DNA from: Candidatus Saccharimonadota bacterium
GTDB lineage: Archaea > Nanohalarchaeota > Nanosalinia > Nanosalinales > Nanosalinaceae
Assembly: GCA_001761425.1 (NCBI GenBank)
Contig: CP012986.1
Span: 960,001-992,000 of the forward strand
Direction of reading: 5' to 3'
DNA length: 32,000 nucleotides
Shown piece after piece: positions 1,012 through 24,026 of the stretch (its first letter is position 1; the number at the start of each line of letters is the position of its first letter). The position numbers and the translations under genes were made by a program. The notes below the pieces were generated by a model. It saw only the letters and a list, made by a program, of their open reading frames with translations, did no database searches and was not told the DNA's origin.

Positions 1012-3006
1012 TTACGTGAATCCCTGGAAGGCATAACTCTCCGCTTCCTCAAGTTCTTCCTCTTCTTCCGCGACAAGTTCGCTGAACTTTTCGACCGCAT
1101 TCTCCAGAGGCTCTGCTGAAAGCTCGTACTGCCCTGCGGTTTCCTGAACTTTCTGGACAGGTTCCTCAAGAACTTCAAACTCTTCCTGAAGAGCCTCAAA
1201 GTCAAGGTAGTATTCCTCGCTGAAGAACGCGACATAGGCCAGACCTCCGCCTCCAAGGCCTACGAAAAGAAGCAGGAAAAGGCCTACAGCCTGGTTCCTC
1301 TGCGCTGTCTCATGCTGTTTTTTGACTTCTTCATAGGTATTTGACGCAGCCTGGAACCGGTTCTCAACGTTTTGCAGATGACTTTTGACCCTGTAAAGAT
1401 TGCCGTTGCTTTTGGCTTTCTCTGCTGACTCCATGCTGGAGAAGAAGCCGGAGGTATTTGACTCAAGTTTCTCCTTTCTTGAATCCGAGAGGCCTTTCTC
1501 AAGGTCTGAAACATTTTTCTCCAGAGCCTCGTACTTCTTATAATATTCACTGTACTTACTGGTTATCCTGTCTTCCTGATTCTTGTTTGCCTCTACAACG
1601 AAATCCATTTCCCGGGATGTATCAGGACTTTCTGTAGAAAAAGTCAGACTGTGTTTCCCGAGGTCAGTGTCTTCAGTGTCGATTGAAAACATCAGTTCAG
1701 TGCTGTTTCCAGGCCTCAAGTCTTGAACAGTCCTTGAATCATTCAAAACCTGTGAATCAATGTTTAGCTCCATTTCACCGATGAAAAGATCGCCTGTGTT
1801 GGTCACGTTGGCATAGATTATCTTCGAGTCTCCTGCCGTGACACTGGCAGAGTCATCTACACTCAGGCTTGCAGAAGGCTCTGCATCAGGCCTGAAATCG
1901 AAACTGAATTCTTCACGGACACTTATCTTCCCGGACTTATCTCTTACCCAGACATAGACCGTGTGCTTCCCGGCTTCAAGGCCTTCAGTGCCGACCCTGA
2001 ACTCTCCCTCTGCTTCCTGGTGGGAGATTTCTTTCCCTCTGTCATCGCCGTACTGCATTTCATCGATCTGATAATGGATCGTGTCTACGTCAAGGCCTTG
2101 GACATCTTTTGAATCGTAGGCATCGTAGGAAAGCTGGAAGTCGCTGTTGAAAACTCCTACAACTGCTGAAAGGTTTCCTACCTCTGGACTGGTCTGATCA
2201 AAGAAATACTCTCCGATTTCTACGGTTTCGCTGTTACCTGCCTCATCTTCCAGGACGATTTCCATGTCATAGCTTATGTCGAATCCTACCGGCTGATGTT
2301 CACAGGTGAAGTCCTCGCTGTCATCAATGTCCTCGAAATCCGAGAAGCCGTCGAACCAGCTGTCAGGACTGCACTTAATCCTTACCTCGGATTCGTCCTT
2401 CTGGTCTAGAGAAACAGTGAACCTTTCAGGCCCTCTACCATCAAACACCTGAGGCCCCGGACTCACCTCTGGATCACTATCTCCTTCAAACCGGTTGTCG
2501 TAAACAAATTCTTCATTATAACTTAGTTCGTTACCGTATTCGTCTTCAGCAACTATATTTAGATCGTAGGAACTGTCATGGCTCAACTTATTTTCTGGAA
2601 AGTTAACTTCAAGTTCTCCAGAACAGGATTCATCTCCACAGTCAAAGTTCTGATCCAGAGCATCTCCATTGTCTATCTCCACATCCAGATCGGTTACTTC
2701 ACTTTGATCTGACATCTCGAACTGGACAGGTCCAAACTCCGAATTTACCCTATCTTGTAAATTATTACTTTCTATCTGAGGTTCTTCATTGTCAACAGTA
2801 AGCTCTACAGAATCAGATCCGTTACCCTGATCCCTGGAAACTTCTATCGTCATCTCGCCGCTTGTCACATAATCGTCAGTATCGAACGAATAGTCTGTAT
2901 AGGATCCATTGGCAGTTACTGTAGCCAGGTCATTGGAGCTAGAACCAGAATAGGCCAGAGTGATAGAATAGTCCTCACTACTGTTTGTAGTGAAATTTAG
3001 CGTCAC
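1012..3006 (-). CDS. Large acidic cell-surface protein with tandem Ig-like/CARDB-like beta domains, a coiled coil, one C-terminal TM anchor and an acidic cytoplasmic tail
   Basis: The 664-codon ORF starts at GTG 3006. Domain boundaries recur about every 100 aa (EEPQIESN, SDPEVSPGP, QTSPEVGN, PDAEPSASL). The segment SVTAGDSKIIYANVTNTGD...LRPGNSTELMFSIDTEDTDLGKHSLTF looks CARDB-like. The TM segment is AVGLFLLLFVGLGGGGLAYVAFF. An in-frame signal-peptide-like extension runs upstream to 3132 (see findings). Confidence 0.8.
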   Translation of the reverse strand: MTLNFTTNSSEDYSITLAYSGSSSNDLATVTANGSYTDYSFDTDDYVTSGEMTIEVSRDQGNGSDSVELTVDNEEPQIESNNLQDRVNSEFGPVQFEMSDQSEVTDLDVEIDNGDALDQNFDCGDESCSGELEVNFPENKLSHDSSYDLNIVAEDEYGNELSYNEEFVYDNRFEGDSDPEVSPGPQVFDGRGPERFTVSLDQKDESEVRIKCSPDSWFDGFSDFEDIDDSEDFTCEHQPVGFDISYDMEIVLEDEAGNSETVEIGEYFFDQTSPEVGNLSAVVGVFNSDFQLSYDAYDSKDVQGLDVDTIHYQIDEMQYGDDRGKEISHQEAEGEFRVGTEGLEAGKHTVYVWVRDKSGKISVREEFSFDFRPDAEPSASLSVDDSASVTAGDSKIIYANVTNTGDLFIGEMELNIDSQVLNDSRTVQDLRPGNSTELMFSIDTEDTDLGKHSLTFSTESPDTSREMDFVVEANKNQEDRITSKYSEYYKKYEALEKNVSDLEKGLSDSRKEKLESNTSGFFSSMESAEKAKSNGNLYRVKSHLQNVENRFQAASNTYEEVKKQHETAQRNQAVGLFLLLFVGLGGGGLAYVAFFSEEYYLDFEALQEEFEVLEEPVQKVQETAGQYELSAEPLENAVEKFSELVAEEEEELEEAESYAFQGFT

Positions 3007-5250: not shown

Positions 5251-5910
5251 TCACTGGTCTTGGAAGAATGCGTCGAGTTTTTCCTTTGATTCCTCTGGGC
5301 CGATGAGTATGAGTTCGTCTGACTGGTTGAGTTCGACTTTACTTTCTGCTTCCAGTGTTTCCTCCGGTTTTATGATAGAAGTGATCTTGAATTCTTTCGG
5401 GAATTTCTCCATGTCTCTGAGTTGGCCTATATTTTTGTCCAGAAGATCTGATTCCTTTTTGATTGAGGCCTTGAGGACTTCTCTGTCGTTGGAGAGGTTT
5501 GCCAGTTTCACTAGGTATGGGTGTTCTACTGCGGAGAGGAATTCTGATAGAAGAAGGTCTGTATGTCCTATTGCCTGTGCGTCGATGATTTCGAAGGCCT
5601 CAAAGTATTCGTCGTCTTCCATTCTTGAGACGACTTTGGGTACTCCGTATTTTTTGGCGAGGGAGCATACTACCATGTTTTCGTTGTCGTCTTTCAGTGT
5701 GGATATGAGTATGTCTGCCTCTGTCACTCCTGCGTCTTCTAGAGCGGATAGGTTAGAAGGGCTTTTGTTGATAACTGTGGCTCCTGATGATGAGTAGAGT
5801 CGTTTGCATCTGTCTTCGTCCTCTTCTACGACTACCAGGTCGTGTTTTCCTTCCAGCCTCTCTACAAGGCGTTTCGAGAGCGTGTTGATCCCTGTTATCA
5901 CTATGTACAT
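5251..5910 (-). CDS. trkA: Trk/Ktr potassium uptake system, RCK (TrkA-N + TrkA-C) regulatory subunit
   Basis: The 219-aa ORF has a Rossmann-like N-terminus (MYIVITGINTLSKRLVERL...DLVVVEEDED) and a TrkA-C-like C-terminus (VLKASIKKESDLLDKNIGQL...LILIGPEESKEKL). A GGAGG lies 10 nt upstream. The gene sits immediately downstream of trkH. The GxGxxG motif is degenerate (TGINTLS). Confidence 0.85.
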   Translation of the reverse strand: MYIVITGINTLSKRLVERLEGKHDLVVVEEDEDRCKRLYSSSGATVINKSPSNLSALEDAGVTEADILISTLKDDNENMVVCSLAKKYGVPKVVSRMEDDEYFEAFEIIDAQAIGHTDLLLSEFLSAVEHPYLVKLANLSNDREVLKASIKKESDLLDKNIGQLRDMEKFPKEFKITSIIKPEETLEAESKVELNQSDELILIGPEESKEKLDAFFQDQ

Positions 5911-5923
5911 TTTCCGGGGCCTC

Positions 5924-7348
5924 CTATGTTTTGTCTTTGAATAAGCCGCTATTAAATATTGCCAGAAGCGGTATCATCTCAAGTCTTCCGGCGATCATCC
6001 CGATTATCCAGACTATCTTTGAACCTGCTGAAAGGCCTATCATCTGCTGCGTCTCCATAAAGACCGGTCCCATGTTCCCGATCGCAGAGACTGTTCCCGA
6101 GAAAGCTCCCATGAGCGAGGCACCGTCGAAGATAACAACAGCGAGCGTTCCGATGAAAGAAGCGGAGACCCATACGAAGAACAGGACAGAGATTGTTCTG
6201 AGAGTCTCCGACTCAAGTATCTCCCCATCGATCTTCACCTCGTTTATAGCTGTCTCAGGAAGCCTGTAACTCCTTAGATGTCTCTTCACAAGTTCTACCA
6301 TGGTCTCGAGGCGGAAGACTTTCAGGCCTCCGGAAGTCGAGCCTACAGATCCTCCGACAAACATCACTGCGATTATCAGGAACTGTATAGCTGTCCCGAG
6401 AACGCCAAGCGACATCGTAGAATAGCCAGTTGAAGATACGAGCGCTGCGGACTGGAAGAAAGCATCCAGTACAGCAGGCCTTGAAAGAGTATACAGTTTG
6501 AGGCCTATGACAGCTGCAACTGCGAGGAAAATCCCTGTGTATATCTTGAACTCAGAGTTTCTGAAGAGTTTTCGCCACTGACCGTTCAAAAGGCTGTACA
6601 TCAACACGAAGTTCACTCCCCCTATAAACATGAAAACCGTTGTAACGGCCTGTACTGCCGGAGAATAGGCTCCTATGCTCATCGCGTTTGAAGAGAATCC
6701 TCCTGTTGATATAGCGGAAAATGCATGAAGGAAGGATTCGAAAAGCGGCATACCAAGCCAGACATAAGTTGCGATTATCAAAGTGGTTATGAACCCGTAT
6801 ACCTTCCACAGGTCGACTATCGATTTAGTCAGTGAAGGCCTTATGCTTCCTGCATCAGTTTTGTGTGTTTCTGCGGAGAAGAGTCTTCTGGAGGCTCCTC
6901 CGCTTTCTCTTATAACTGCTATGAAGAACGTCAGGATTCCGAGGCCTCCCACCCACTGCATCAGGGCTCTCCAGAAAAGCAGTGACTGAGGCAGGATCGC
7001 CGGGTCTGCAAGCATCGAGATACCTGTGGTTGTGAGGCCTGCTGTTGCTTCAAATACTGCGGAGACCGGAGGCATGAACTGGAAGAGAGGTATTGCTCCC
7101 AGGAATACTGCCATAGTCCATCCTGCGACTGTTGAAGCCATAGCCTCAGATAGCTGTGGTTCTCCCTTCTTTCCTGCGTGAACAAGGAGTTCTCCCATTG
7201 TCATGCTTGTGAGTGAGGCAGCAATGAATCCCGTCCTGACCGTCCAGGGCTCTATCAGGTAGAAGCTCATCAGCATGGGAACTGCCATTATCAGGGCGAA
7301 AACCTTGAGAAATTTTCCGAGTATACGGCTCAGTACCCTGGCTCTCAT
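5924..7348 (-). CDS. trkH: Trk/Ktr-type potassium transporter membrane subunit (TrkH/KtrB family)
   Basis: This is a polytopic membrane protein with four repeated pore-loop glycine motifs: GLTTTGIS, AISTGGFS, LVSSTGYS and GSTSGGLK. The ORF track starts at 7468, but the ATG at 7348 (MRARVLSRILGKF...) leaves a sensible divergent promoter region. Confidence 0.85.
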   Translation of the reverse strand: MRARVLSRILGKFLKVFALIMAVPMLMSFYLIEPWTVRTGFIAASLTSMTMGELLVHAGKKGEPQLSEAMASTVAGWTMAVFLGAIPLFQFMPPVSAVFEATAGLTTTGISMLADPAILPQSLLFWRALMQWVGGLGILTFFIAVIRESGGASRRLFSAETHKTDAGSIRPSLTKSIVDLWKVYGFITTLIIATYVWLGMPLFESFLHAFSAISTGGFSSNAMSIGAYSPAVQAVTTVFMFIGGVNFVLMYSLLNGQWRKLFRNSEFKIYTGIFLAVAAVIGLKLYTLSRPAVLDAFFQSAALVSSTGYSTMSLGVLGTAIQFLIIAVMFVGGSVGSTSGGLKVFRLETMVELVKRHLRSYRLPETAINEVKIDGEILESETLRTISVLFFVWVSASFIGTLAVVIFDGASLMGAFSGTVSAIGNMGPVFMETQQMIGLSAGSKIVWIIGMIAGRLEMIPLLAIFNSGLFKDKT

Positions 7349-7365
7349 TATGTTAATAGATAACC

Positions 7366-7465
7366 GGGTTTCCGAATAAAAAATGGGGAGGCCTACCTGT
7401 TGATTCAAAAAGTTTAACACGGAAACCGTTTGTACTCGGAAACCCAGTTCTTCACCGAAACGGTG
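7366..7465. promoter_or_regulatory. Divergent trkH / rps6e control region with GGAAACC-type inverted repeats and a small hairpin
   Basis: A 10-bp perfect inverted repeat has arms GGGTTTCCGA (7366-7375) and TCGGAAACCC (7436-7445). A further CGGAAACCG lies at about 7420-7428. The hairpin CACCG-aaa-CGGTG is at 7453-7465. The SD GAGGTGA at 7479-7485 is 9 nt before the rps6e ATG. Confidence 0.3.
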
Positions 7466-7494
7466 CAAATGGGAGACTGAGGTGACAATTAATT

Positions 7495-9064: not shown

Positions 9065-9072
9065 TTTTTATA
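9065..9072 (+). promoter_or_regulatory. TATA-box-like element (TTTTTATA) about 26 nt upstream of the ATG, suggesting a leaderless mRNA
   Basis: TTTTTATA lies at 9065-9072 and the ATG is at 9095, with no SD between them. The same octamer occurs at the same spacing at 27081-27088. Confidence 0.35.
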
Positions 9073-9094: not shown

Positions 9095-10651
9095 ATGATC
9101 GACCCTGTAAATTCTCTCCTAAGTTTGACGACAAGTCAGCAGCCACTGATTCATATACTGATAACTTTACTGATCCTGGCAGGAGGCCATTTAGTGGTGA
9201 AGGCCCTGAAAATCGGGGTCAGAAAGGCCTGGGTCACCGGAGACGGAGAAGTCACCAAGAAAAGAATAAAGCAGAGAGAAGGAAAGATAGAGCTTGGAGG
9301 AAACATACTTGATGCAGGAGTCATCACACTGGCTCTACTCTACCTGAACACAGGAATAACAACACAGCTATTCGAAAGCCTCCAGGATTACCTTCCAAGA
9401 CTATTCACAGTAATACTTATCGGAATACTGGGAGTAACAGTGATCAACATCGCAACACAGGTGCTCAGAAACTTTTTACAGACAACAGGAGTCAGAAACT
9501 ACATCAGGGAGACAGGCCTCTCCATAAACAGTATAAAACTACTTGTAGGATCATTCAAGGCCTTTCTCTACCTGCTTCTTGTACAGGTCCTGGTATCCCA
9601 GTTGAACATAGGCAGTACATTGATCAGTGAGATAATCAATGCCTCATCGTGGGCGATTGCTTTCCTGATCGCAGGCCTCCTTTTCTACGGGTTCAAGGAC
9701 CTGTTCCAGAACTTTGCGGCAGGTGTTTACCTGAAGAATTCAAGGATTGTCAGGCCTGGTGAGGAGGTGAAGGTTGATGACGAATCCGGTGAAATCCGGG
9801 ATGTTTCGCTTTTCAGCACTACGGTAAACACTAATTCCGGTTATACCGTGCTTGCTCCTAACTCAGAGATCATGGAAAAGCACCTGAAGTTCAAACGTGC
9901 ACAGAGCGATCTTGATACTCTGGAGGAGATCAGCAATTACTTTGTAGCTGAGAGGTCTGGTTATTCTGGGGCTGCGAGCCTTGAGATGGCTCTGGAAGTC
10001 CTGGGTTTCCGGAAGGGTCAGGACGAGATCCAGGACAAAATGAACGAGCAGGAGGCAGATGAAGACGGAAAGAATCTTGATGAGGTCCAGAAAATTCAGG
10101 AGACTGTGTCAGAGCTGACGAACTACCGCCTGAACTCTGCATGGATCAAGGAGGAAAAAATCTCTGATGTCAGCGATGAACTGAAGGCCTGGTTCAATGA
10201 TGGAGGCCTGGCAGTCCTGAAGATGAAGAAGGATATCGCCGGTGAACAGGAGGAACAAGGTTACGTTCTTGCTACAGCAGTTGAGGGAGAGGAAGTGCTT
10301 CTGGTTGATCCTGTGGAGAGAGGTGTTTACTATGTCCACAAGGATAAGCTGGAAAGAGCTCTCGACATGAACGGTGGAGGCTACCTGGTTATCGCTGCTG
10401 AAGGGACTACCTCTTTCTGGAGGATCAAAAACGGTTTGATCTACAGTGAGAAGAAGGACTACAGTGAGGAGCTTTCGAAGACTCTTGAATCAAGACTGAG
10501 GAAGATCGTTCGTCAGGGGAGGATCATTCAGAATGTGACGCCTGAGGCCATGAAGGAGTATATCGAGAAGTGGAGGGCAGACGATACATCAGCGCTTCTG
10601 TGGAAACCAAGTGAGGGGGATGAGGATGACGAAACTGCTGAAGGTAACTGA
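9095..10651 (+). CDS. MscS-family mechanosensitive channel fused to a C-terminal papain-like (peptidase C39-like) domain with substituted catalytic residues
   Basis: The N-terminus has multiple TM helices. The MscS beta-domain is FQNFAAGVYLKNSRIVRPGEEVKVDDESGEIRDVSLFSTTVNTNSGYTVLAPNSEI. The C-terminal segment SGYSGAASLEMALEVLGF...QGYVLATAVEGEEVLLVDP matches the C39-like pattern xCGPASLAMVLxxxG...GHYVVxxGxxxxxVxxxDP, but with Ser for the Cys and Gly for the His. Confidence 0.75.
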   Translation: MIDPVNSLLSLTTSQQPLIHILITLLILAGGHLVVKALKIGVRKAWVTGDGEVTKKRIKQREGKIELGGNILDAGVITLALLYLNTGITTQLFESLQDYLPRLFTVILIGILGVTVINIATQVLRNFLQTTGVRNYIRETGLSINSIKLLVGSFKAFLYLLLVQVLVSQLNIGSTLISEIINASSWAIAFLIAGLLFYGFKDLFQNFAAGVYLKNSRIVRPGEEVKVDDESGEIRDVSLFSTTVNTNSGYTVLAPNSEIMEKHLKFKRAQSDLDTLEEISNYFVAERSGYSGAASLEMALEVLGFRKGQDEIQDKMNEQEADEDGKNLDEVQKIQETVSELTNYRLNSAWIKEEKISDVSDELKAWFNDGGLAVLKMKKDIAGEQEEQGYVLATAVEGEEVLLVDPVERGVYYVHKDKLERALDMNGGGYLVIAAEGTTSFWRIKNGLIYSEKKDYSEELSKTLESRLRKIVRQGRIIQNVTPEAMKEYIEKWRADDTSALLWKPSEGDEDDETAEGN

Positions 10652-11432
10652 CAGAGACTACGATGAGTTCGAGGAGGTCTTCGATGAGGTCAACGAAGCA
10701 GCTATCGACGAAGTAGCTCCGGAAGTCATTGACGGGAACAAAGATGTCAAGGTCTCCGGAGAATCCATAGAAAAGTACGACGCAGCCTATATCGAGATAG
10801 CCCCAAAGAACGCAGTCTTTGGAAGAGTCGCACTTGAAATGATAACCGAAAAAGGCGTCAAAACCAATCACACCTCAACAGGCTTCTTCATCGCAGCCAA
10901 AAAAAACTATCTCTACTACGTACTCCACGAGAAAAACATTCCAGCACCAAAGACAGTCGTGGTAGCAACAGGTAAGGCCTCAAGGAATATAGAGAAAGAG
11001 CTAAGAGGGCCTCTGATCGCAAGAAAACTTGAGAACCTTGAAAAATCTGAGAGCAAAAAGCTTGAGAAGGTAAAGGATATCACAGAGTTCGCAGAAGGCT
11101 CAGAATACGACGAGGACATCCTTCTGTTCCATGAATACAACTCCGGGGACAAGTATCGCTGTCTGGTCGCAGGCGATCAGATAATATCTCTCAGGGACAG
11201 ATCCGAGGGCTGGAGATTCGATGAGGACAGCTTAAGCTACTCAAACATCTCAGACCGGCAGAGAGAAGTGATAAAGAAAAGCTCTGAGGCCCTGGGGACA
11301 CCTGTTTTAGAGGTGAAGATGAGGGGAGAGGAAGTGTTCGATATCAATCCCAACCCAGATCTGAAGCTTTTCACAGACGTATCAGGCAAAAACGCATTTG
11401 AAGCAGCAGCAGAGGCCTTGAAAAGTGATTAA
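10620..11432 (+). CDS. Degenerate RimK-like ATP-grasp paralogue (probably non-catalytic)
   Basis: The track starts at GTG 10611. ATGs at 10620 and 10626 follow a GAGGGGGA purine run, and the gene overlaps the MscS gene 3' end by about 30 nt. It aligns by eye with the downstream ligase: KNYLYYVL/NKFYSMKIL, LLFHEY/CLQEF, DKYRCLVAGD/DTRIITIGD and GWRF/GWRS. The Gly-rich ATP loop is replaced by RKLENLEKSES. The SN-x-GG block is lost and the E-x-N block is altered. Confidence 0.65.
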   Translation: MRMTKLLKVTDRDYDEFEEVFDEVNEAAIDEVAPEVIDGNKDVKVSGESIEKYDAAYIEIAPKNAVFGRVALEMITEKGVKTNHTSTGFFIAAKKNYLYYVLHEKNIPAPKTVVVATGKASRNIEKELRGPLIARKLENLEKSESKKLEKVKDITEFAEGSEYDEDILLFHEYNSGDKYRCLVAGDQIISLRDRSEGWRFDEDSLSYSNISDRQREVIKKSSEALGTPVLEVKMRGEEVFDINPNPDLKLFTDVSGKNAFEAAAEALKSD

Positions 11433-11435
11433 AAG

Positions 11436-12320
11436 ATGAAATTAGGGATCGTCTACGGCGAGATATCCACAAAGCACCAGTTGATTATGGAGAGGGCAGA
11501 AGATATATTTGACTCGGTTCTGGCTGCTCCTATAGACGGCGTCAAGTTCATCCACGGCGAGGACGAATCAAAGGTACTTTACAAAGACGCAGATCTAACA
11601 GAGTTCGATGCAGTATATATCAGGATCGCAGACAATGATATGATGTTTGCAGAACACCTCGTCGAAGTTCTGAATGATGCAGGAGTGGTTACACAGGCCC
11701 ACAACGATACATACAGCTATGAATCCAACAAGTTCTACAGCATGAAGATACTGGCGGAAAACGGAGTTAAGGTACCGGACAGCGTCTACACTTTAAGCCC
11801 TGGAGTCGCTGTAGACGCAGCGGAAGGCCTCGGCTACCCCATAATCATGAAAACCGTACGTGGTGCCGGCGGAGAAGGAGTCATGAGAGCAGGATCTGAA
11901 AACGAGTTAAAACCGGTTATGGACACGATGAAATCCCTGGAACAGGAAATCTGCCTCCAGGAATTCAAGGAACACGGAGGAGAAGACACCAGGATAATCA
12001 CAATAGGCGACTACATAACCGCATACAGCCGGAGCAGCGGAGGAAACGGCTGGCGCTCAAACATCTCAGGAGGCGGAGAACGGATAGAAGCCGACGTCAC
12101 AGAAAAAATGAAACAGGCAGCCTACAGATCATGCAGAGCAGTAGGATTCGAAATAGGCGGAAGCGACGTCATAAACACAGAAGAAGGACCTTACGTACTG
12201 GAAGTCAACGGCTCCTTCGGAATAAGCGAAGAAATGAACGAAATAATCGGAGAAGACGTCGTACTGAAGATGGTAGAACGCATGCACAAAAGAGCGCTCA
12301 AGAGACAGAGAGAAAACTAG
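11436..12320 (+). CDS. RimK-family ATP-grasp ligase (alpha-L-glutamate ligase-like; RimK/LysX/CofF/MptN clade)
   Basis: Motifs are PIIMKTVRGAGGEGV, CLQEF, DTRIITIGD, WRSNISGGG and YVLEVNGSFG. The start is 3 nt after the preceding stop. Confidence 0.85.
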   Translation: MKLGIVYGEISTKHQLIMERAEDIFDSVLAAPIDGVKFIHGEDESKVLYKDADLTEFDAVYIRIADNDMMFAEHLVEVLNDAGVVTQAHNDTYSYESNKFYSMKILAENGVKVPDSVYTLSPGVAVDAAEGLGYPIIMKTVRGAGGEGVMRAGSENELKPVMDTMKSLEQEICLQEFKEHGGEDTRIITIGDYITAYSRSSGGNGWRSNISGGGERIEADVTEKMKQAAYRSCRAVGFEIGGSDVINTEEGPYVLEVNGSFGISEEMNEIIGEDVVLKMVERMHKRALKRQREN

Positions 12321-13246
12321 AGCTGAGACAAGGCCTCAACCAGTCTTTCTATACCAGGCCTCTCATACTCCTCCCTTCCCTCGCCATCACTGAAGTACAT
12401 TCCCGGTTTCGAATTAAGTTCCAGGATGTAAGGCCTTCCTTCCTTCGAAATAATGAAATCCACTGAGAAAAAGCACGGCCGGTATCCTTCCAGCTTTTCG
12501 CTCACCTCTCTCGCAGACTCCATGACCTCTCCAGGGACATCTTCAAGCCCGATGTATGTTATAGAGCCCTGCTTGGCAACATTACTGACACCGTCTTCCT
12601 CCTCCGGCGTCCGAACATATGTATACACTGGCTCATTGTTGACAAATACTATCCTGAGGTCATGCTGTTTCCCGGAGACCCCCGGAAGCGGAACCTCAGA
12701 GGCCTCAACAAACTCCTGGACCACGTACTCAGTATCATCTTCAAGCTCAAGGCCTTCTTTACTTTCTATAATATGGACGTTTTCTCCACCATGCCCGTAT
12801 CTGGGTTTGACCACGACTTTCCCATGTTCCTCAATCATATCCTGCAGAAACTCCTGAGAAGCCGTACTGGGGAAAAACTCCGGGAACTTTTCAGCCGACC
12901 TTAACTTGTCCTTGCAGAACTTCTCCAGTTCAAAATCATTAACAACAGGAAGTTCCTCGTTTAACTTCTCCTTAACCTCCTCTGTCTCCTCATTGAATGG
13001 GAACTTGTCAAAGGCCCCGTCGATATTGACATTCTTGATTTTCTCCCATTCCGAACCATTCCAGAAAAAGGCTTTCTCCAGCTTCCCTTTTTTATACCAG
13101 CTGTAATGTGCGTAGAATAGTTCAAGGCCTTTCTGCTTCCCAACCTCGGAATATGTCTGGTAGTCTCTGTTCTGATAGTGCTTGCTGAAAGGTCTTTCCT
13201 CCCAGCCTATGGCATCGCCCCAGATCACACCGATGTTCTTGGTCAT
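12317..13246 (-). CDS. ATP-grasp ligase, YheC/YheD-like (paralogue 3 of 3 in transcription order)
   Basis: Motifs are VVKPRYGHGGENV, HDLRIVFVN, SNVAKQGS and SVDFII...PYILELNSKPGMY. The N-terminal block is EKAFFWNGSEWEKIKNVNIDGAFDKF. Its stop overlaps the stop of the convergent RimK-like gene within CTAG at 12317-12320. Confidence 0.8.
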   Translation of the reverse strand: MTKNIGVIWGDAIGWEERPFSKHYQNRDYQTYSEVGKQKGLELFYAHYSWYKKGKLEKAFFWNGSEWEKIKNVNIDGAFDKFPFNEETEEVKEKLNEELPVVNDFELEKFCKDKLRSAEKFPEFFPSTASQEFLQDMIEEHGKVVVKPRYGHGGENVHIIESKEGLELEDDTEYVVQEFVEASEVPLPGVSGKQHDLRIVFVNNEPVYTYVRTPEEEDGVSNVAKQGSITYIGLEDVPGEVMESAREVSEKLEGYRPCFFSVDFIISKEGRPYILELNSKPGMYFSDGEGREEYERPGIERLVEALSQL

Positions 13247-13289
13247 TCAGAGACTCTCGCCGATAAACACGGCTTTTCAGGCCTCATTT

Positions 13290-14273
13290 TTAATCTTTGG
13301 CCAGCTCCTGAACCGCGTCCACGATTTTCAGCATCCAGGGCCTCTCCCATTCCTCACTTCTTCCAGGACCGTGATAATAAACGCCTGGCTGAGAGTTAAG
13401 CTCGACGATAAACGGCTCTCCATCAGCGATCATGAAATCAACAGTATAGATTACAGGCCTGAAATCCTCGAGCTCGTCCGCCACTTCCTGGACACGAGAT
13501 AGAACTTTCTCAGGCACATCCTCAAGGCCTATATACTTCTTCGAGCCTCCCTGCGCCACGTTAGAAAGCACAGAGTCCTCGCCTGGGATCCTGAGATAGC
13601 TGCCGACGACTTCATCGTTTACCACGAGAATTCTGAGATCGTGAGGGCCTTCCACGTCCAGTTCAGGTATACCTGCGTCATCAACAAAACTCTGGACGAT
13701 AACTGTATCAGGATCCATCACATCGTAATCCTCCATAGACTCGACCACGCGTATATCTTCGCCGGAGGAACCGTAACGAGGCTTGAGAATCGCTTTACCG
13801 TGTTTTTCAAGCATTTCCTCGACGCTTTCTTTTGAGGCCTTCCTGGTCTCCGGAATGTACTCGGGGAAACGCCTGTAAGTCTTTAATTTATCCTGACACA
13901 GGTCAGCGACCTCGGGATCGTTCAGGACACCGATCTCACTCTTCATCTCATCCTTAAGCTCGTACTTCTCCCTGTCATGGCGGAAAAGATCGTAGACACC
14001 ATCCAGCTGAACATCTTCAACTTTCTCCCACTCCTCTCCGTTCCAGCGGAAGGCCTTCTCCATTTTTCCTGAATCATACCAGCGGTACTCTCCGCATACC
14101 ACGTCAACCCCGTGTTCTCTCAGCATTTCCGTATATTCGGCATAATCATCATTTTTCCACTGCTTGTCGAACGGTTTACCGCGGTCAAACTTTACCTCGT
14201 TCTCCCACCACAGGAAAGCAACCAACTTCTGAGACGAATCTGACCCAGCTTCAGACGGTTCACCAGATGACAT
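13290..14273 (-). CDS. ATP-grasp ligase, YheC/YheD-like (paralogue 2 of 3)
   Basis: Motifs are ILKPRYGSSGEDI, HDLRILVVN, SNVAQGGS and TVDFMI...FIVELNSQPGVY. The track starts at GTG 14294, inside the upstream gene. The ATG at 14273 lies 7 nt after that gene's stop and is preferred. Confidence 0.8.
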   Translation of the reverse strand: MSSGEPSEAGSDSSQKLVAFLWWENEVKFDRGKPFDKQWKNDDYAEYTEMLREHGVDVVCGEYRWYDSGKMEKAFRWNGEEWEKVEDVQLDGVYDLFRHDREKYELKDEMKSEIGVLNDPEVADLCQDKLKTYRRFPEYIPETRKASKESVEEMLEKHGKAILKPRYGSSGEDIRVVESMEDYDVMDPDTVIVQSFVDDAGIPELDVEGPHDLRILVVNDEVVGSYLRIPGEDSVLSNVAQGGSKKYIGLEDVPEKVLSRVQEVADELEDFRPVIYTVDFMIADGEPFIVELNSQPGVYYHGPGRSEEWERPWMLKIVDAVQELAKD

Positions 14274-14280
14274 AGAGAAA

Positions 14281-15231
14281 TCAGGCCTCTGCACGTTTTC
14301 TCAGCATTTTGAGGATGTTTTTGATCTTCGGAATCTCTTTCTCCTTCTCCTTGACCTTGTGATGATAGTAAGTTCCCGGCTTCGAGTTCAGCTCTACGAC
14401 CCACGGCTTCAGGTCCTCGTCAAACATGATATCGACGGAGAAAATCGCCGGCTGGTACTGTTCAAACTCTCCCTTGATCTCCTCGATAATCTCAATCACT
14501 TCATCCGGCAGCTGTTCACGTGAAATATACTTCTGGTTCCCGCCACGAGAAATATTCGATATAAGGCCTTCATCAGGGACACGGACGTAGTTGCCGTTCT
14601 GGACCTCGCCGTCGATGACGATAGTCCTCAAGTCGTGAGGGCCTTCAACACCCCACTCCGGGTAGCCGTCTGTCGGGATAAACCGCTGTACGATGAAATC
14701 TTCCGGCTCGTCAGGCTCGTCAAAATCCTCCAGTTTCTCTACTACCTCAACTCCGTGACCTGCGAAGCCGTAACGCGGCTTGAATACGAACATGCCGTAT
14801 TTTTCCAGCATCTTGGAGGCGTTTTCTACAGTAGCAGTCCTGGTCTCCGCAATCCTGTCCGAAAAAAGCTCGTAGGTCTGAAGTTTATCCTTACAGATCT
14901 CCTCCATCTCAGGATTGTTCACACAGCCTACATCCCTGAAAATCTCTTTCTTCAGTTCCCTTGTCTCTCTATCAAATTTGAACTTATCATAAACCAGGTC
15001 AAGGCCTACATCTTCAACTTTCTCCCACTCAGAACCGTTCCAGTAAAAGGCCTTTTCCAGTTCTCCATCTTCGTACCATCTGTATTTGGCTATGTAGACT
15101 TTCAGGCCTTCGCTGTGGCCAAGTTCTGTGTATTTTGCGAAGTCCTTGCTTCTTTCTCCTCCGAAAGGATCTTCTCTATCCCATTCTACTTCTGCATCCC
15201 AAAGTAATCCGACGGCATGTTCTTCTGTCAT
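14281..15231 (-). CDS. ATP-grasp ligase, YheC/YheD-like (paralogue 1 of 3)
   Basis: Motifs are VFKPRYGFAGHGV, HDLRTIVID, SNISRGGN and SVDIMF...WVVELNSKPGTY. The N-terminal block is EKAFYWNGSEWEKVEDVGLDLVYDKF. Confidence 0.8.
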   Translation of the reverse strand: MTEEHAVGLLWDAEVEWDREDPFGGERSKDFAKYTELGHSEGLKVYIAKYRWYEDGELEKAFYWNGSEWEKVEDVGLDLVYDKFKFDRETRELKKEIFRDVGCVNNPEMEEICKDKLQTYELFSDRIAETRTATVENASKMLEKYGMFVFKPRYGFAGHGVEVVEKLEDFDEPDEPEDFIVQRFIPTDGYPEWGVEGPHDLRTIVIDGEVQNGNYVRVPDEGLISNISRGGNQKYISREQLPDEVIEIIEEIKGEFEQYQPAIFSVDIMFDEDLKPWVVELNSKPGTYYHHKVKEKEKEIPKIKNILKMLRKRAEA

Positions 15232-15286
15232 AAACGGATTTTACGCGGCTACACTCTTTAAATCCAGTGACTCCTCAGATAGATCT

Positions 15287-16504
15287 ATGACCACAGTCCA
15301 GGAACTCAAAGAACTGGAAGAACTGGAAAACCCGGAACTCAGCTTCGAACAGGAAAAACTCATCGGAGAACTCTCACAAGCAGGGAAAATCCTGATAGAC
15401 AGAGCCTCCTGGATCAAAAACATCAAGATCAAGAACAAAGTCAGCGAGCGAGAAAGATTCAAGCAGAAACGCAGGAAAGGCAAAAATTTCAGGCCGGAAT
15501 TCGAGTACAGAAAATTTCCTCACGACGAGGAAAAACTGCTGAAAGTACTGGATCAATGCATAAAGGCCTCACAGGGAATCAGCGAGCAGCACCTGGAAAA
15601 GTACGGAGCGAAAAAAATCACCGCAGAAGATATGACAGAGTTTTTCTCGGAGATCTTCCAGGAGATGAAACTCTACGTCAAACTAGGCGCAAATATTGAA
15701 AGCGAGGAGGCCTGGCGCAGGTACTCGAAAAAGATATGGCCTCTAACACAAAAGAAAACTGTGGAAAACTCGAGGAAAAAACTTGGAGGCCTTGAACCCC
15801 AGGAAATGGAGAAAAACATTTCCCCTGAAGAGCTTGCGGAGATGTTTGAACAGGAGCTTGATAGATTAGATGTTGAGTACGACGTAGAGATCAGGGATAC
15901 AGGAGGATGCTACAACATCCCAGAGAAGAGAACTGTAGTAGTCGCTGCCGGAGACGAAGAAAAAAGGATGTATTCAAGGCCCGAGGCCGAGATGCTGACA
16001 ATGCATGAGCTTTTCCACGCAATGAGAGCATTAAACGGGTTTGAAGCAGGAAGAAAATCAGGTTTCCCTGAGATTCTAGGCCTTCACACGCCTTTCTACG
16101 ATCAGACTGAGGAGGGCGGCGCTCTTTTCAGGGAGAAAGCGACAGAAACCAGTTTTGAGGATAAAGAGTTTGACTACCATCTTCGTCTGATCGCTGCTGT
16201 CGAGATCGCTCGTTCAGATGATTACAGGGAAAGTTTCCAGGAAATAGTTGAGAAACTTATCGACCTCGGTGGAAGCGTTGACAGAAGTTTTTATCTGGTA
16301 GCTAGGAACCGTGAGGCCTTGAGGCATCATATCTACCAGGCAGGATACTTCGAGGAATGGAAAGACCGGGACGAGAAATGGCCTCTGCTGATTGGAAAGA
16401 TAAACTCTGAATGGGCGGAAAAGTTCAGGGAAGAGGTAGAGGCCGGAGGAATGTTTGAAAGGCCTCTGATCGGCGAAGAAAAACTTTTCGATTTCCAGTT
16501 TTAA
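15287..16504 (+). CDS. HExxH zinc metallopeptidase, tentatively DUF1704 / QEGLA-motif / MATCAP-like carboxypeptidase family
   Basis: The track starts at 15128, overlapping the divergent gene. The ATG at 15287 (MTTVQELKELEE...) is the sensible start. The motif string is MHELFHAMRALNG...TEEGGALFRE, which matches the family pattern HE..H ... NG ... (Q/E)EG(L/G)A as I remember it. Confidence 0.6.
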   Translation: MTTVQELKELEELENPELSFEQEKLIGELSQAGKILIDRASWIKNIKIKNKVSERERFKQKRRKGKNFRPEFEYRKFPHDEEKLLKVLDQCIKASQGISEQHLEKYGAKKITAEDMTEFFSEIFQEMKLYVKLGANIESEEAWRRYSKKIWPLTQKKTVENSRKKLGGLEPQEMEKNISPEELAEMFEQELDRLDVEYDVEIRDTGGCYNIPEKRTVVVAAGDEEKRMYSRPEAEMLTMHELFHAMRALNGFEAGRKSGFPEILGLHTPFYDQTEEGGALFREKATETSFEDKEFDYHLRLIAAVEIARSDDYRESFQEIVEKLIDLGGSVDRSFYLVARNREALRHHIYQAGYFEEWKDRDEKWPLLIGKINSEWAEKFREEVEAGGMFERPLIGEEKLFDFQF

Positions 16505-16976: not shown

Positions 16977-17852
16977 ATGAACATGGATGGCTGGTTTGAG
17001 GATCCAGGACACCTGAGGCCCAATGATATCGCTGAAGGCCTGGAAAGACAGTACTGGGATGATTTTGCCGAAGAGGTCTCTGGCAATGTATCAGGATACC
17101 AGGACGAAGAATTCGTAGAAGTAAGGCCAGAGGACGTCATCGAAGTTCTGGAAAAATACGACCCCGGGACACAGGACTCTGCAACTGAGGATGCCGTAAG
17201 ATCCAGAATCAAAAGCAGGGTACTGAACCCGTATATCAGAGACGAGGAAACACCGGATTACATTGACCAGATAGTGACCAAACAGTTCCCAGGCCTCAAA
17301 GGAAAATACAGATTGGCGGATCAGGGCCTTGCACGCACAGTCTTCAGAGGACCTGTGGACTCAGAAAAAGATAAAGCACTTTACCTGCCGAATGAAGGCC
17401 TTGAACCGGATATCTACGACATCGATATCAGGAACAGGATGGTGATGGTAGCAGTTTCTATGCAGAACGCTGAAAGAATCGAAGAGTTCGTCTCGGACAT
17501 ATTCCAGCCCTTAATAATCGAGGACAACGGAAGAAAGATTCCTGCAGCATTTGGAGAATACAGGCCTCTGGAAGACGTACCGGAGGGTCGGAAGAAGGAA
17601 GCAGCTAGCTTTGCAAGAGAACTACAGGACAGAGCTAACTCCGGCGAGATAATAACTCTGTACACCCTGGAAGAAGACACGGAAAACGAGTTCGTCTTCG
17701 GAGAAAGCCACAGAGAGGAAAACATAAGATATGATACAGAAAGAGAGAAACTGGTTGCAGCAGATGCCGGAGAGATTAATCCGAACGTATCAAGAGAGGA
17801 AGTTGAAGGCCTTCTCGACCAGGAATACATTGACCTGATAGAGTCATTCTAG
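16977..17852 (+). CDS. Hypothetical acidic protein
   Basis: The 291-aa ORF has the acidic, halophile-type composition of its neighbours. I recognise no motif. Confidence 0.6.
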   Translation: MNMDGWFEDPGHLRPNDIAEGLERQYWDDFAEEVSGNVSGYQDEEFVEVRPEDVIEVLEKYDPGTQDSATEDAVRSRIKSRVLNPYIRDEETPDYIDQIVTKQFPGLKGKYRLADQGLARTVFRGPVDSEKDKALYLPNEGLEPDIYDIDIRNRMVMVAVSMQNAERIEEFVSDIFQPLIIEDNGRKIPAAFGEYRPLEDVPEGRKKEAASFARELQDRANSGEIITLYTLEEDTENEFVFGESHREENIRYDTEREKLVAADAGEINPNVSREEVEGLLDQEYIDLIESF

Positions 17853-22343: not shown

Positions 22344-24026
22344 ATGTTACTGGCAGCTAGCTGGGCTCAGAATTTTGCATTGATGATTATAACTGCAGCT
22401 GTGCTTGGAGCTGTTGCCAGAAAGACGAAACAGCCAACAGTTATCGCCTATATCATTACAGGCCTTTTGCTCGGTCCTTTCTTCCTCGATATAATTGCAG
22501 AGACTGAGGGGACCAAACTCCTAGGGGAGCTAGGGTTGAGCTTTCTTCTATTCTTGATAGGCCTTGAGATAAAGCTGGATGAGATTAGAGAGATCTTCAG
22601 CGAGGTCTCTGTCATTGCGGTAGCTCAGATTTCGGTTTCCGCTGTGCTTGGTTACCTAGCGGGCCAGGCCTTTGGCTTCTCATTTATTGAATCAGTTTTC
22701 GTAGCTGCTAGCTTTACCTTCTCATCGACAGCAGTAGTGGTAAAGCTCCTGTCCTCAAAAGACGAGATTTCAACTCTTCCCGGAAAAATTGGGGTAGGAG
22801 TTCTCCTGATACAGGATGTCGTGGTCGTACTTTTACTCGCTCTGTTATCAACGAGTGCTTCAACTCCTTCACAGATAGTTGCAAGTATTGCAGAGATCGC
22901 TGTAATGATCAGTGTTATCGCAGGAGTATCTTACCTCTCCTCAGAGAAACTGCTGCCCAGGGTTTTCAGAAAAGTCTCAGAGAACCGTCAGGCCTTTTTC
23001 ATCCATGGCGTGACCTGGGCTTTCCTTTTCATCACTTTATCAGACAGTCTCGGAGTCTCAACAGAAATAGGAGCATTCTTCGCCGGCCTAAGCCTGGCAC
23101 AGCTCCCTTACAGCCATGAACTTATTGAAGAGATAAGGCCTCTAACAGATTTCTTCATGGCCGTATTCTTCATAAACATAGGTTTAGGCCTCACAGGAAA
23201 CGCATTATCCACCTACATGGTTGAGGCCTTTGTCGCAGCAAGTATTTTGATGATCGGGAAGTTTGCTGTTCTTTTCTTCACTATCGACCGCCTGAAGTTT
23301 ACACCGGAGACCTCGCTGAAGTCTGCACTTAACCTTAGTCAGATGAGCGAGTTCTCACTTATTCTTGGTTCGTTAGGAGTCAGTAAAGGCCTTATTTCCC
23401 CTGAAATCTTTGGCTTCATCAGTTTGACAATGATCATTACCGTGGGCTTTTCCTCTTACTTTATCGTCTTCAATGAAAAGATATACAGGCGTTTTGAGCA
23501 TTTGTTAGCAAGGATTGATTCTGAGGCGAAGAAGGATGTTGACGTGGATGTTCTTGAGGACCACGCTCTGATCATAGGCTATGATTTTATCGGGAGGCGC
23601 TCTGCGGAGATCCTTGATGACGCCTACGAACGGGTTATGGTAGTTGACAGAAACTCTAACAACGTAAACAGACTGAGCAGATCAAGTTACGAGTACATTT
23701 ACGGCGATTTCGGGCATGGAGAGATAAGAAATGCCTCCCAGATCGATAAGGCAGATTTTATCCTTAGTCTTGTACCCGATATCAATGTGAACAGGAAGAT
23801 TGTTGAGGAGGCCTCGCCGGAAGCCGCGGTTTTCGTGAAAGGCGACAGTCTAGAGGATGCCACAGAGCTTTACGACCTCGGAGCACATTACGTTATTCAG
23901 AAAAACGAATTAGTTGGCGAGAAGATGGGAGAGTACCTGAAACTTTACTTGGAGGATGAAGAGCTTTTCCATGAAGAAGTGAAGAGAGACAAGGAAAGAA
24001 TTGAATGGGGTGACAGAAGTGTCTGA
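22344..24026 (+). CDS. Kef-type monovalent cation:proton antiporter (CPA2) with a C-terminal RCK/TrkA-N domain
   Basis: It has about 12 TM helices, with PTVIAYIITGLLLGP near the N-terminus, followed by the soluble domain HALIIGYDFIGRR...VVDRN. The start is 1 nt after the tsaC stop. Confidence 0.85.
   Translation: MLLAASWAQNFALMIITAAVLGAVARKTKQPTVIAYIITGLLLGPFFLDIIAETEGTKLLGELGLSFLLFLIGLEIKLDEIREIFSEVSVIAVAQISVSAVLGYLAGQAFGFSFIESVFVAASFTFSSTAVVVKLLSSKDEISTLPGKIGVGVLLIQDVVVVLLLALLSTSASTPSQIVASIAEIAVMISVIAGVSYLSSEKLLPRVFRKVSENRQAFFIHGVTWAFLFITLSDSLGVSTEIGAFFAGLSLAQLPYSHELIEEIRPLTDFFMAVFFINIGLGLTGNALSTYMVEAFVAASILMIGKFAVLFFTIDRLKFTPETSLKSALNLSQMSEFSLILGSLGVSKGLISPEIFGFISLTMIITVGFSSYFIVFNEKIYRRFEHLLARIDSEAKKDVDVDVLEDHALIIGYDFIGRRSAEILDDAYERVMVVDRNSNNVNRLSRSSYEYIYGDFGHGEIRNASQIDKADFILSLVPDINVNRKIVEEASPEAAVFVKGDSLEDATELYDLGAHYVIQKNELVGEKMGEYLKLYLEDEELFHEEVKRDKERIEWGDRSV

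Follow-up and report, generated by a model that had tools for sequence, protein, structure and literature searches.

The window analysed here, 32,000 nucleotides of contig CP012986.1 of Nanohaloarchaea archaeon SG9, contains a cluster of seven genes, A to G, and every open reading frame lies where the original prediction had placed it. Three genes on the plus strand make up one operon: A (AQV86_05275, 9095–10651), encoding an MscS-type channel with a cytoplasmic C39/phytochelatin-synthase-like papain-fold domain; B (10620–11432), encoding a RimK paralogue that is predicted to be non-catalytic; and C (11436–12320), encoding a RimK-type, alpha-L-glutamate-ligase-like ATP-grasp enzyme. Facing them is a minus-strand operon of YheCD/TTL-like ATP-grasp ligase genes, with F (14281–15231) first, then E (13290–14294) and D (12317–13246) last. 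On the plus strand beyond F, G (AQV86_05305, 15287–16504) encodes an HExxH peptidase, a gluzincin of the MATCAP/DUF1704 family.

The predicted junctions can all be read in the sequence. The stop codons of C (TAG, plus strand) and D (TAG, minus strand) share one CTAG at 12317–12320; a 3-nt gap (11433–11435) separates the stop of B from the ATG of C; B, with its ATG at 10620 or 10626, begins before A has ended (stop codon 10649–10651); and 55 bp lie between the starts of F (15231) and G (15287). The consensus MKLLxITD among B orthologues favours 10626 as the start of B, and E begins at GTG 14294 or, likelier, at ATG 14273. A TATA-box-like element, TTTTTATA (9065–9072, plus strand), 22 nt upstream of A, is the probable promoter of the A-B-C operon itself; a T/A-rich equivalent stands at the same distance from A in 9/9 orthologous loci. 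Midway along the divergent spacer, 25–26 nt from the start codons of F and G, the palindrome TTTAAA (15257–15262) is a candidate shared or bidirectional TATA box for the F-E-D operon and G; CTTTAAA or CTTTAAT is also central to the divergent spacer of loci L001, L006, L008 and L020.

That A is an MscS channel was borne out by profile search, in which MS_channel_2nd (38.8 bits) and MS_channel_1st_1 (27.1 bits) each exceeded the cut-off. Transmembrane helices and a beta-domain (approximately residues 91–263) precede a C39/phytochelatin-synthase-like domain (approximately residues 275–500). The C39-like assignment stood as to fold and not as to activity. In SG9 the C-terminus scores below threshold against C39-like profiles (E 0.02 and 0.1), but the predicted structure (pLDDT 82.6) matches phytochelatin-synthase-like, PCAT1 and ComA papain-fold domains with a Foldseek probability of 1.0, best of all the glutathione-processing phytochelatin-synthase-like Alr0975, followed by the C39 export-peptidase domains of PCAT1 and ComA; the pseudomurein endoisopeptidase PeiR is also among the matches. 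On this model the C-terminus is a C39/papain-like domain, with which the precomputed C39 matches of many orthologues, and the Phytochelatin (PF05023) match of some, concur. The SG9 domain is predicted to be catalytically dead: Gln, Cys and His of the catalytic set are replaced by Glu286, Ser291 and Gly389, and Asp405 is retained. Gln, Cys and His are all kept in 53 of 120 A orthologues.

B and C are the degenerate and the intact RimK-like genes that had been predicted. C matches Pfam RimK (3e-27) with all catalytic motifs present, shows the highest conservation in the set (mean column identity 80%) and has RimK as its nearest solved enzymes (E about 1e-25), with ArgX and LysX further off; by tblastn it matches only annotated rimK genes. 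B found no Pfam match in the profile search, and its orthologue in L024 has a weak match to RimK; nonetheless, the B family aligns to the C family over its full length (hhalign probability 98.4%, E 5e-15). Lacking the ATP-loop Lys and the Gly-rich loop, B is, to judge from its sequence, a conserved non-catalytic RimK paralogue, that is, a pseudo-enzyme.

The assignment of D, E and F as YheC/YheD-like paralogues likewise held. Each exceeds the ATPgrasp_YheCD cut-off at about 1e-14; TTL matches are weaker, with D and F passing the Pfam TTL cut-off over short stretches. All five ATP-grasp genes that had been counted are present, but only four (C, D, E and F, which retain all ATP-grasp motifs) look catalytic, and the number five is a lineage-specific expansion of an ancestral core of B, C and one YheCD gene.

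G proved to be related to DUF1704/MATCAP, as had been suggested. It scores 33.6 bits against Pfam MATCAP (cut-off 27), matches QEGLA at 3e-9 and is linked to canonical MATCAP-family proteins with an hhalign probability of 99.9%. H240-E241-x-x-H244 is invariant, T-E-E-G-G-A (275–279) is the equivalent of QEGLA, and HExxH and EEGGA are kept in 23/23 orthologues. On these matches G is a genuine MATCAP/DUF1704 relative, in a divergent subfamily confined to Nanohaloarchaeota.

The association of A, B and C with one or more YheCD ligases is unbroken across the 15 informative nanohaloarchaeal loci examined. In every locus A/B and B/C overlap or lie 3–4 nt apart, which suggests a protein complex. The genes are thus co-located across the phylum, with the qualification that the linkage of G is not obligatory: it adjoins the other genes in 13 of the 15 loci, and the cluster is present without it in L023, L024 and L041. 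In L023 and L041 a GCS2 (glutamate-cysteine-ligase family 2) gene stands between C and Yhe instead of G, and both keep an active C39 domain; no GCS2 was found in SG9. For A orthologues from contigs of 20 kb or longer, a G-type protein is on record from a contig of equal length for 1 of 19 with an intact C39 catalytic set versus 5 of 13 without, so that G is more often accompanied by Cys-less than by active C39 domains (Fisher p = 0.03, uncorrected for phylogeny); the Cys is absent in 11/11 G-adjacent loci scored.

The cluster sits inside a larger block, TrkAH-S6e-eIF2gamma-...-PIN-Rpb7-Spt4-S24e, between eIF2gamma and PIN. Because all loci share the gene order of this block, finding the genes side by side within the phylum does not amount to independent evidence. 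Genes for K+ transport, TrkAH and two of Kef-like type, flank the block. The gene for S6e, a protein ending in EE, lies 1.2 kb upstream of the cluster. In one sub-lineage G has moved to the ribosomal stalk operon, in the order P0-[G]-P1, and in four further loci a second MATCAP subfamily lies directly 3′ of P1; these cases probably come from one phylum and represent just two placement events. FtsZ is close to the stalk operon by synteny only, and other P0240-type MATCAP genes occupy unrelated contexts.

Taken together, the genes make up a genuine module of ligases and a peptidase, of the same type as the known pairs RimK/RimB, TTL/MATCAP and bacterial QEGLA/ATP-grasp. Three observations count towards one module: the A-B-C-Yhe linkage, the spacer shared by G and F-E-D, and the independent adjacency of MATCAP-family and ATP-grasp genes in Proteobacteria. 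The last accords with a bacterial neighbourhood of QEGLA/DUF1704 and RimK-related genes that the original prediction had named: at least 30 rhizobial replicons carry a MATCAP-family gene directly next to one for a GshB-like ATP-grasp protein. Against this reading, the cluster persists in the three loci without G, and phylum-wide synteny could explain much of the co-location.

Our data thus support a single system; what it makes is a separate matter, and of the two products originally proposed, a protein tail or a free peptide, we tentatively favour the former at somewhat short of an even chance. On this proposal the seven genes would form one Nanohaloarchaeota-specific build-and-trim module that edits acidic C-terminal protein tails. 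C, probably acting in complex with its dead paralogue B, would together with D, E and F spend ATP to add residues, most likely glutamate, singly to the free carboxyl end of an acidic chain, and G, as a MATCAP-type zinc carboxypeptidase, would trim them from the same end. A, translationally coupled to B and C, may position the system at the membrane, its papain-fold domain serving as a binding module in SG9 and as an active cysteine peptidase in other lineages, while its MscS part could give an osmotic or tension input. The chain would be the acidic tail of at least one protein, most plausibly of the translation apparatus, with S6e, the stalk protein P0 and Rpb7 as candidates. The working analogies are the action of RimK/RimB on S6 of bacteria and that of TTL/MATCAP on tubulin, the former pairing RimK with a polyglutamate-specific protease (PMC7343187). 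We count in favour of a protein tail the position within the S6e...S24e block, G between P0 and P1, the second MATCAP subfamily after P1, and intergenic spaces too small for a precursor-peptide gene. The acidic ends of P0, S6e and Rpb7 add weak evidence, since any halophile proteome is rich in acidic C-termini.

Several observations sit less easily with tailing. A membrane channel at the head of the ligase operon is easier to reconcile with a small product that is released, and RimK can produce free poly-glutamate in vitro (PMC10375531). Somewhat less likely than tailing, but a serious alternative, is that the ligases build a short free peptide stepwise from amino acids – oligo-glutamate, or a gamma-glutamyl, glutathione- or phytochelatin-like compound – which the papain-fold domain binds or processes at the cytoplasmic mouth of the channel, the MscS channel releases or senses, and G or an active C39 domain trims or recycles; such a system would amount to a non-ABC counterpart of the peptidase-containing ABC exporters. 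The structural resemblance of A to Alr0975, PCAT1 and ComA and the Phytochelatin matches of its orthologues suit this reading, as do the neighbouring K+ transport genes, a complement of three to five distinct ligases apt for hetero-peptide assembly, and glutathione synthase among the top weak NCBIfam matches of D and E. Small gamma-glutamyl peptides are also indicated by GCS2 in the variant clusters with active C39 domains and by the bacterial MATCAP-family genes, which lie between N-formylglutamate amidohydrolase (FGase) and a GshB-like ligase. However, all ligase scores fall far under the GshB cut-offs, SG9 has neither GCS2 nor a live papain domain, nothing in this reading accounts for the recurrence of MATCAP genes in the stalk operon, and protein tails are the substrate of characterised MATCAP enzymes. 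An MscS pore is not known to pass peptides.

It is unlikely that ligases, channel and peptidase are unrelated neighbours held together by frozen gene order in a compact-genome phylum. Synteny of the whole block and the separability of G are what this would predict; it accounts poorly for junctions typical of co-translated partners, for the retention of B as a pseudo-enzyme, for a cluster that stays intact through changes in Yhe copy number and an internal GCS2 insertion, for the adjacency recurring in Proteobacteria, and for the (phylogenetically uncorrected) excess of Cys-less C39 domains beside G. More improbable still is a known metabolic or cell-envelope pathway, be it LysX/ArgX-LysW amino-acid biosynthesis, MptN/CofF cofactor glutamylation, glutathione synthesis, D-Ala-D-Ala or pseudomurein-type peptide synthesis, or a graspetide RiPP. 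Models for LysX, MptN, CofF, GshB and archaeal Ddl-like proteins do give weak profile matches, and these, with the PeiR match of A, point that way, but in the profile search no cluster ligase reached the equivalog cut-off for LysX, MptN, CofF, GshB, Ddl or RimK-S6 (scores were 3- to 20-fold under), and C is nearer RimK than LysX or ArgX. Nowhere in the window is there a gene for a LysW-like carrier, Mur ligase, glycosyltransferase or flippase, nor space for a precursor peptide, and no partner gene of a known pathway lies near the ligases. Nanohaloarchaeota are not known to have these pathways.

One close parallel is RimABK of Pseudomonas, in which the glutamate ligase RimK and the protease RimB act on ribosomal protein S6 (PMC7343187). 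Both systems combine a RimK-type ATP-grasp ligase – RimK being the nearest solved relative of C – with a trimming peptidase encoded alongside it and a protein that takes environmental input. Unlike RimABK, SG9 has a MATCAP-type gluzincin rather than RimB and no RimA, the target bS6 is absent from archaea, and the nanohaloarchaeal cluster adds a pseudo-RimK, one to three YheCD/TTL-like ligases and an MscS-C39 membrane protein. The eukaryotic tubulin tail cycle (TTL/TTLL with MATCAP/TMCP and other carboxypeptidases) shares the pairing of ATP-grasp ligase and MATCAP-family carboxypeptidase, with D, F and G passing the respective cut-offs; here, however, D, E and F score higher as YheCD, G is very divergent (33.6 bits) and gave no structural match to solved MATCAP, and no tubulin-like target is linked to the cluster. 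The proteobacterial FGase/QEGLA(DUF1704)/GshB-like operon, exemplified by S. meliloti pSymB (NC_003078, 1123862–1126740), also sets a MATCAP-family gene beside an ATP-grasp ligase gene, but is co-directional with 12–21 bp gaps, has one GSH-S-type ligase with an FGase partner or fusion, and is without channel, C39 domain or RimK pair. This operon is annotated and functionally uncharacterised.

Gene A recalls PCAT1, ComA and HlyB-type exporters (the last with an inactive C39-like domain) in placing a cytoplasmic papain-fold domain, in active and dead versions, on a membrane conduit; its conduit is an MscS-type channel and not an ABC transporter, and it comes with no gene for a double-glycine leader cargo. 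Finally, Iyer, Abhiman, Burroughs and Aravind reportedly predicted in 2009 neighbourhoods of ATP-grasp, peptidase and membrane-protein genes, including a RimK-like ligase with a 7TM-inactive transglutaminase fusion. The nanohaloarchaeal cluster shares with these an amidoligase, a peptidase and a membrane protein bearing a papain-like, often inactive, domain; it differs in its membrane module (MscS), papain-fold family (C39/PCS-like) and peptidase, and in being archaeal and limited to one phylum.

The arrangement of genes in the window is a new, phylum-specific form of a known theme, in which a ligase is paired with a trimming peptidase; the searchable literature yielded no account of the arrangement itself. 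The eukaryotic tubulin tyrosination/glutamylation cycle follows the same logic, joining a MATCAP-family carboxypeptidase to ATP-grasp ligases, as does – with ligase plus protease – the tuning of bacterial ribosomes by RimK and RimB (PMC7343187); for archaea, no description of a MATCAP-family carboxypeptidase together with ATP-grasp ligases was found in the searchable literature. Across the phylum, whose genomes measure ~1 Mb, the cluster is a strongly conserved investment, and it brings with it a conserved pseudo-ligase.

All seven open reading frames lie where the original prediction placed them: A (AQV86_05275), an MscS channel with a papain-like domain; B, a degenerate RimK paralogue; C, a RimK-type ligase; D, E and F, minus-strand paralogues of the YheCD type; and G, a peptidase of the MATCAP/DUF1704 type that is 100% identical to AQV86_05305 of Nanohaloarchaea archaeon SG9 (1.125-Mb contig). 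Its finer details hold as well: the start codon of B falls within the final codons of A, 3 nt separate B from C, the converging stop codons of C and D share one CTAG (12317-12320), and F and G, which start divergently at 15231 and 15287, have a 55-bp spacer between them. The set comprises two or three transcription units, with conserved TATA-like boxes 22 nt 5′ of A and in the middle of the F/G spacer. The window contains no tRNA genes, and none of the nine proteins checked matched a PADLOC defence model. A graspetide RiPP cluster was considered and is improbable: the gaps between genes (3-55 bp) hold no small ORF for a precursor peptide, and a match to the GRASP_SAV_5884 profile reached an E-value of only 0.003.

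A central issue is what the ligases are. C scores 95.8 bits against Pfam RimK (cut-off 21; E 3e-27) and is the best conserved of the seven genes (mean column identity 80%); its ATP-grasp motifs YPIIMKTVRGAGGEGVMRA, ICLQE, GSD and LEVN – together the Lys with its Gly-rich loop, the hinge Glu and D...E-x-N for Mg binding – are invariant across 14 orthologues. Among solved structures its nearest relatives are RimK enzymes (1e-25), with ArgX and LysX behind, and every match on plasmids is to an annotated rimK gene. It nonetheless falls below the NCBIfam rimK_fam cut-off (133.8 vs 143.4 bits) and far below that of the S6-glutamate ligase equivalog PRK10446 (101.3 vs 331), and on these scores C is RimK-like and not an S6-ligase equivalog; bS6 is not known from archaea. 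B has no Pfam match, yet is homologous to the C family over its full length (hhalign 98.4%, E 5e-15) and conserved in 13 loci. Since the RimK homology is present but the catalytic set is lost – neither the Lys and Gly-rich ATP loop nor the WRSN..GG loop survives – B is predicted to be a maintained pseudo-enzyme of the RimK family. D, E and F, paralogues with 38-46% identity, score 53.7, 55.3 and 52.8 bits against PF14398 (ATPgrasp_YheCD; cut-off 26.8), and all their ATP-grasp motifs are intact, KPRY..G, HDLR, SN..GG, VD and ELNS.PG being conserved across 22 sequences. Against Pfam TTL they score 30.7, 20.8 and 38.9 bits (cut-off 20.1), over aligned stretches of only 33-70 residues, and the YheCD scores are higher.

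The membrane component is an unprecedented fusion of MscS with a C39-type domain. The N-terminal part of A matches MS_channel_1st_1 (27.1 bits; cut-off 22) and MS_channel_2nd (38.8; cut-off 20.2), Pfam finds no match to the usual third, alpha-beta MscS domain, and the C39-like domain stands directly after the beta-domain. In the source archaeon, SG9, the C-terminal 250 residues score below the cut-off of both C39 profiles (15.1 vs 22 and 13.7 vs 24); many A orthologues carry precomputed matches to PF13529 (C39_2) or PF03412 (Peptidase_C39). An AlphaFold model of this part (pLDDT 82.6), searched with Foldseek, matched papain-fold domains with probability 1.0, the top match being Alr0975 (E 3.6e-6), a glutathione-processing phytochelatin-synthase-like protein, followed by PeiR, PCAT1, ComA and a C39-like protein of B. 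anthracis. The expectation of a C39-like domain is thus borne out as to fold. The Q-C-H-D catalytic set, intact in 53 of 120 A orthologues, is represented in SG9 by E286, S291, G389 and D405, and because Glu, Ser and Gly replace the catalytic Gln, Cys and His the SG9 domain is predicted to be catalytically dead. The acidic tail of A (...DETAEGN; ...[ST]EDN in orthologues) was entertained as a substrate of the ligases or peptidase and dropped, its codons overlapping the N-terminus of B. In the overlap (window 10620-10651) AAA CTG CTG AAG GTA ACT GAC belongs to the conserved B start (consensus MKLLxITD), while the A frame reads E-T-A-E-G-N-stop; A orthologues with a 4-nt overlap have no acidic tail.

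That G is a relative of DUF1704/MATCAP is confirmed by Pfam PF08014 (33.6 bits; cut-off 27) and by hhalign comparison (99.9%, E 1e-36) with a second, more canonical MATCAP subfamily, whose members P0240 and P0251 match PF08014 at 8.3e-55 and 1.1e-46. The gluzincin metal site (H240, E241, H244) and the QEGLA-type motif TEEGGA with E275-E276-G277-G278-A279 are invariant across 23 orthologues and align with the HExxH and EEG[LI] motifs of that subfamily. G is far under the NCBIfam QEGLA equivalog (36.4 vs 338.65 bits). An exhaustive profile search with G returned nine matches at E <= 1e-30, after which scores fall to 114 bits; its matches reach outside the phylum, and a second, word-indexed search with the G alignment found nothing outside it. 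Judged by these searches, G-type proteins are an isolated branch.

Gene order was rebuilt from orthologue-encoding contigs and species-representative genomes. The co-location that had been anticipated for related genomes was seen in all 15 distinct loci covering the region: A-B-C and, next to it, one to three YheCD genes on the minus strand stand between the genes for eIF2gamma and PIN_9, with the A/B and B/C overlaps kept. Ca. Nanohalobium constans, which has been cultivated in co-culture, carries the cluster. The ancestral number of YheCD genes is one, against two or three in the Nanohalobium/SG9 branch; the five ATP-grasp genes noted at the outset thus represent a local expansion, and only four look catalytically competent.

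G comes next after the YheCD genes in 13 of the 15 loci, and three loci lack it. At one of these (L024) the position is empty and nothing is substituted; the other two, L023 (Ca. Nanohalovita haloferacivicina) and L041, have a C39 domain that is active by its residues and, between C and the YheCD genes, an extra carboxylate-amine ligase gene of glutamate-cysteine-ligase family 2 (GCS2; L023 13237-14268, L041 12253-13284). In each of the 11 G-adjacent loci that were scored, A is without the catalytic Cys. Of A orthologues from contigs 20 kb or longer, 1 of 19 with an intact catalytic set has a G-type protein recorded on a contig of equal length, vs 5 of 13 without the set (Fisher p = 0.03, uncorrected for phylogeny); in the single exception, L040, both G and the intact C39 set were confirmed. 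This is at most a hint of a tendency of the module to retain one functional peptidase.

G also occurs away from the ligases. In 5 of 16 species-representative loci the ribosomal stalk operon contains it, in the order L11-L1-L10(P0)-[G]-[240-aa gene, opposite strand]-P1 (L011 4391-5617; L012 1670-2890; L014/L022 about 10001-11233; L015 63-1295; L018 9938-11167). These genes are nested among cluster-linked G genes in a neighbour-joining tree, which suggests that the stalk copies of G came from the ligase cluster by relocation. An A-B-C tree and a comparison of GC and tetranucleotide composition neither joined the three G-less clusters to the genomes with MATCAP at the stalk nor set them apart. 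In four other loci – probably also nanohaloarchaeal, from their P0 and P1 sequences – it is a P0240-type gene that stands directly 3′ of P1 (L025 1587-2735; L026 2352-3458; L029 2226-3377; L035 5881-7110); P0240-type genes elsewhere (L028, L031, L032, L042) have unrelated contexts. The ~240-aa gene between P0 and P1 is conserved, without Pfam match (L022 11221-11943, minus strand; L011 5892-6599; L029 1084-1785; L035 4744-5445), and from the opposite strand splits an operon otherwise near-universal in archaea.

In the stalk loci P1 has the GLGxLF end and P0 does not, carrying an acidic tail instead (L022 8972-9958; L025 103-1134; L026 1049-1939; also L011, L018, L029 and L035), with termini such as ...EEESKD, ...AKGGDN, ...ESESEN and ...EEEE; the last residues of S6e are ...EE in 12 of 13 loci, and an acidic tail is found on Rpb7 as well. 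Two independent placements at the stalk, together with a ligase cluster in another translation block, tilt the argument toward a target among the acidic tails of translation proteins, with the qualification that halophiles commonly have acidic tails and that the independent events are few. The repeated presence of MATCAP genes inside the stalk operon offers a concrete target hypothesis that is open to testing.

In Proteobacteria, QEGLA/DUF1704 genes do neighbour ATP-grasp ligases. Searches for the MATCAP family and for the ligase returned 116 and 125 records of nearly equal genus distribution, and in all of the at least 30 replicons common to both (S. meliloti 1021 pSymB, for example) the MATCAP-family gene and a GSH-synthetase-type ligase lie on the same strand, 12-21 bp apart. 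The order on an Aminobacter plasmid is N-formylglutamate amidohydrolase (FGase), QEGLA/MATCAP protein, GSH-synthetase-type ATP-grasp gene (Pfam 1e-51); Vibrio has an FGase-MATCAP fusion that stands by itself. That the adjacency recurs independently in Proteobacteria supports a functional link, and an answer from the archaeal cluster would carry over to the rhizobial QEGLA/ATP-grasp operon, which is found in more than 100 replicons.

What, then, does the cluster do? Four of its ligases have intact catalytic motifs and a fifth is a pseudo-ligase; beside them stand a protein of a metallocarboxypeptidase family, whose metal site is intact, and a membrane protein whose papain-fold domain is dead. 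With RimK/RimB and TTL/MATCAP as precedents, we lean – tentatively, and at somewhat short of even likelihood – toward the editing of protein tails: the ligases would extend a carboxyl end one residue at a time, the residue probably being Glu in view of the kinship of C with RimK, the extended end would be shortened again by G, B may modulate C, and A may tether or gate the system. The original prediction of a ligase-plus-peptidase system survives the refuting conditions that it set for itself, and both of its branches, protein tailing and a free peptide, stay in play. Synthesis of a free peptide, released or sensed via the channel, is a possibility we hold to be real if rather doubtful; it draws on the phytochelatin-synthase-like fold of the A domain, the GCS2 variant clusters, the FGase and GshB-like partners in bacteria, and the channel gene itself.

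Since synteny across the phylum extends to the entire block, co-location by itself is weak evidence, and the genes could in principle share synteny and no common function. Stronger signs are that A, B and C are coupled, that a pseudo-ligase has been retained, and that gene content changes inside an otherwise intact cluster; such a coincidence is quite improbable. Least probable is a known metabolic pathway: no ligase reaches the LysX/ArgX, MptN, CofF, GshB or Ddl equivalog cut-offs (the best scores of C are 101-105 bits vs 275-350, and those of the other ligases are lower), and the neighbouring genes serve translation, transcription and ion transport, with no pathway partner nearby. A bolder extension of tail editing, unlikely in its entirety, is a reversible tail code on the translation machinery: RimK-/TTL-like ligases would lengthen the acidic C-termini of stalk P0 and S6e, MATCAP-type carboxypeptidases would trim them, and an MscS-derived tension sensor, its papain-fold domain holding or cleaving the ligase complex, would couple osmotic state to translation. 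If true, prokaryotes would have a counterpart of the TTL/MATCAP tubulin cycle, and this would be the first MscS channel to serve as input of a protein-modification system.

Several features of the surroundings deserve mention. K+ transport genes flank the block in SG9 and its relatives – TrkA and TrkH on the 5′ side (window 5251-7468), two tandem Kef-like Na_H_Exchanger/TrkA_N genes on the 3′ side (22344-25671) – and with the MscS gene make this an ion- and osmo-homeostasis neighbourhood. A 664-aa ORF (window 1012-3006) has no Pfam match, nor does a 291-aa ORF between the PIN and Rpb7 genes (window 16977-17852), for which BLAST also found no counterpart in the other loci compared; L001 has a different gene, of 340 aa, in its place. 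In Ca. Nanosalinarum J07AB56 (L021 3124-5733) the eIF2gamma frame runs to 869 aa rather than the usual 395 or so, and could reflect an intein, a fusion or an assembly artefact. Finally, a GTDB record titled as a 'Colwellia polaris' MAG (L020, JBLGBK010000004.1) carries a typical nanohaloarchaeal S6e-eIF2gamma-cluster-PIN-Rpb7 block; the bin has probably been mislabelled or is contaminated.
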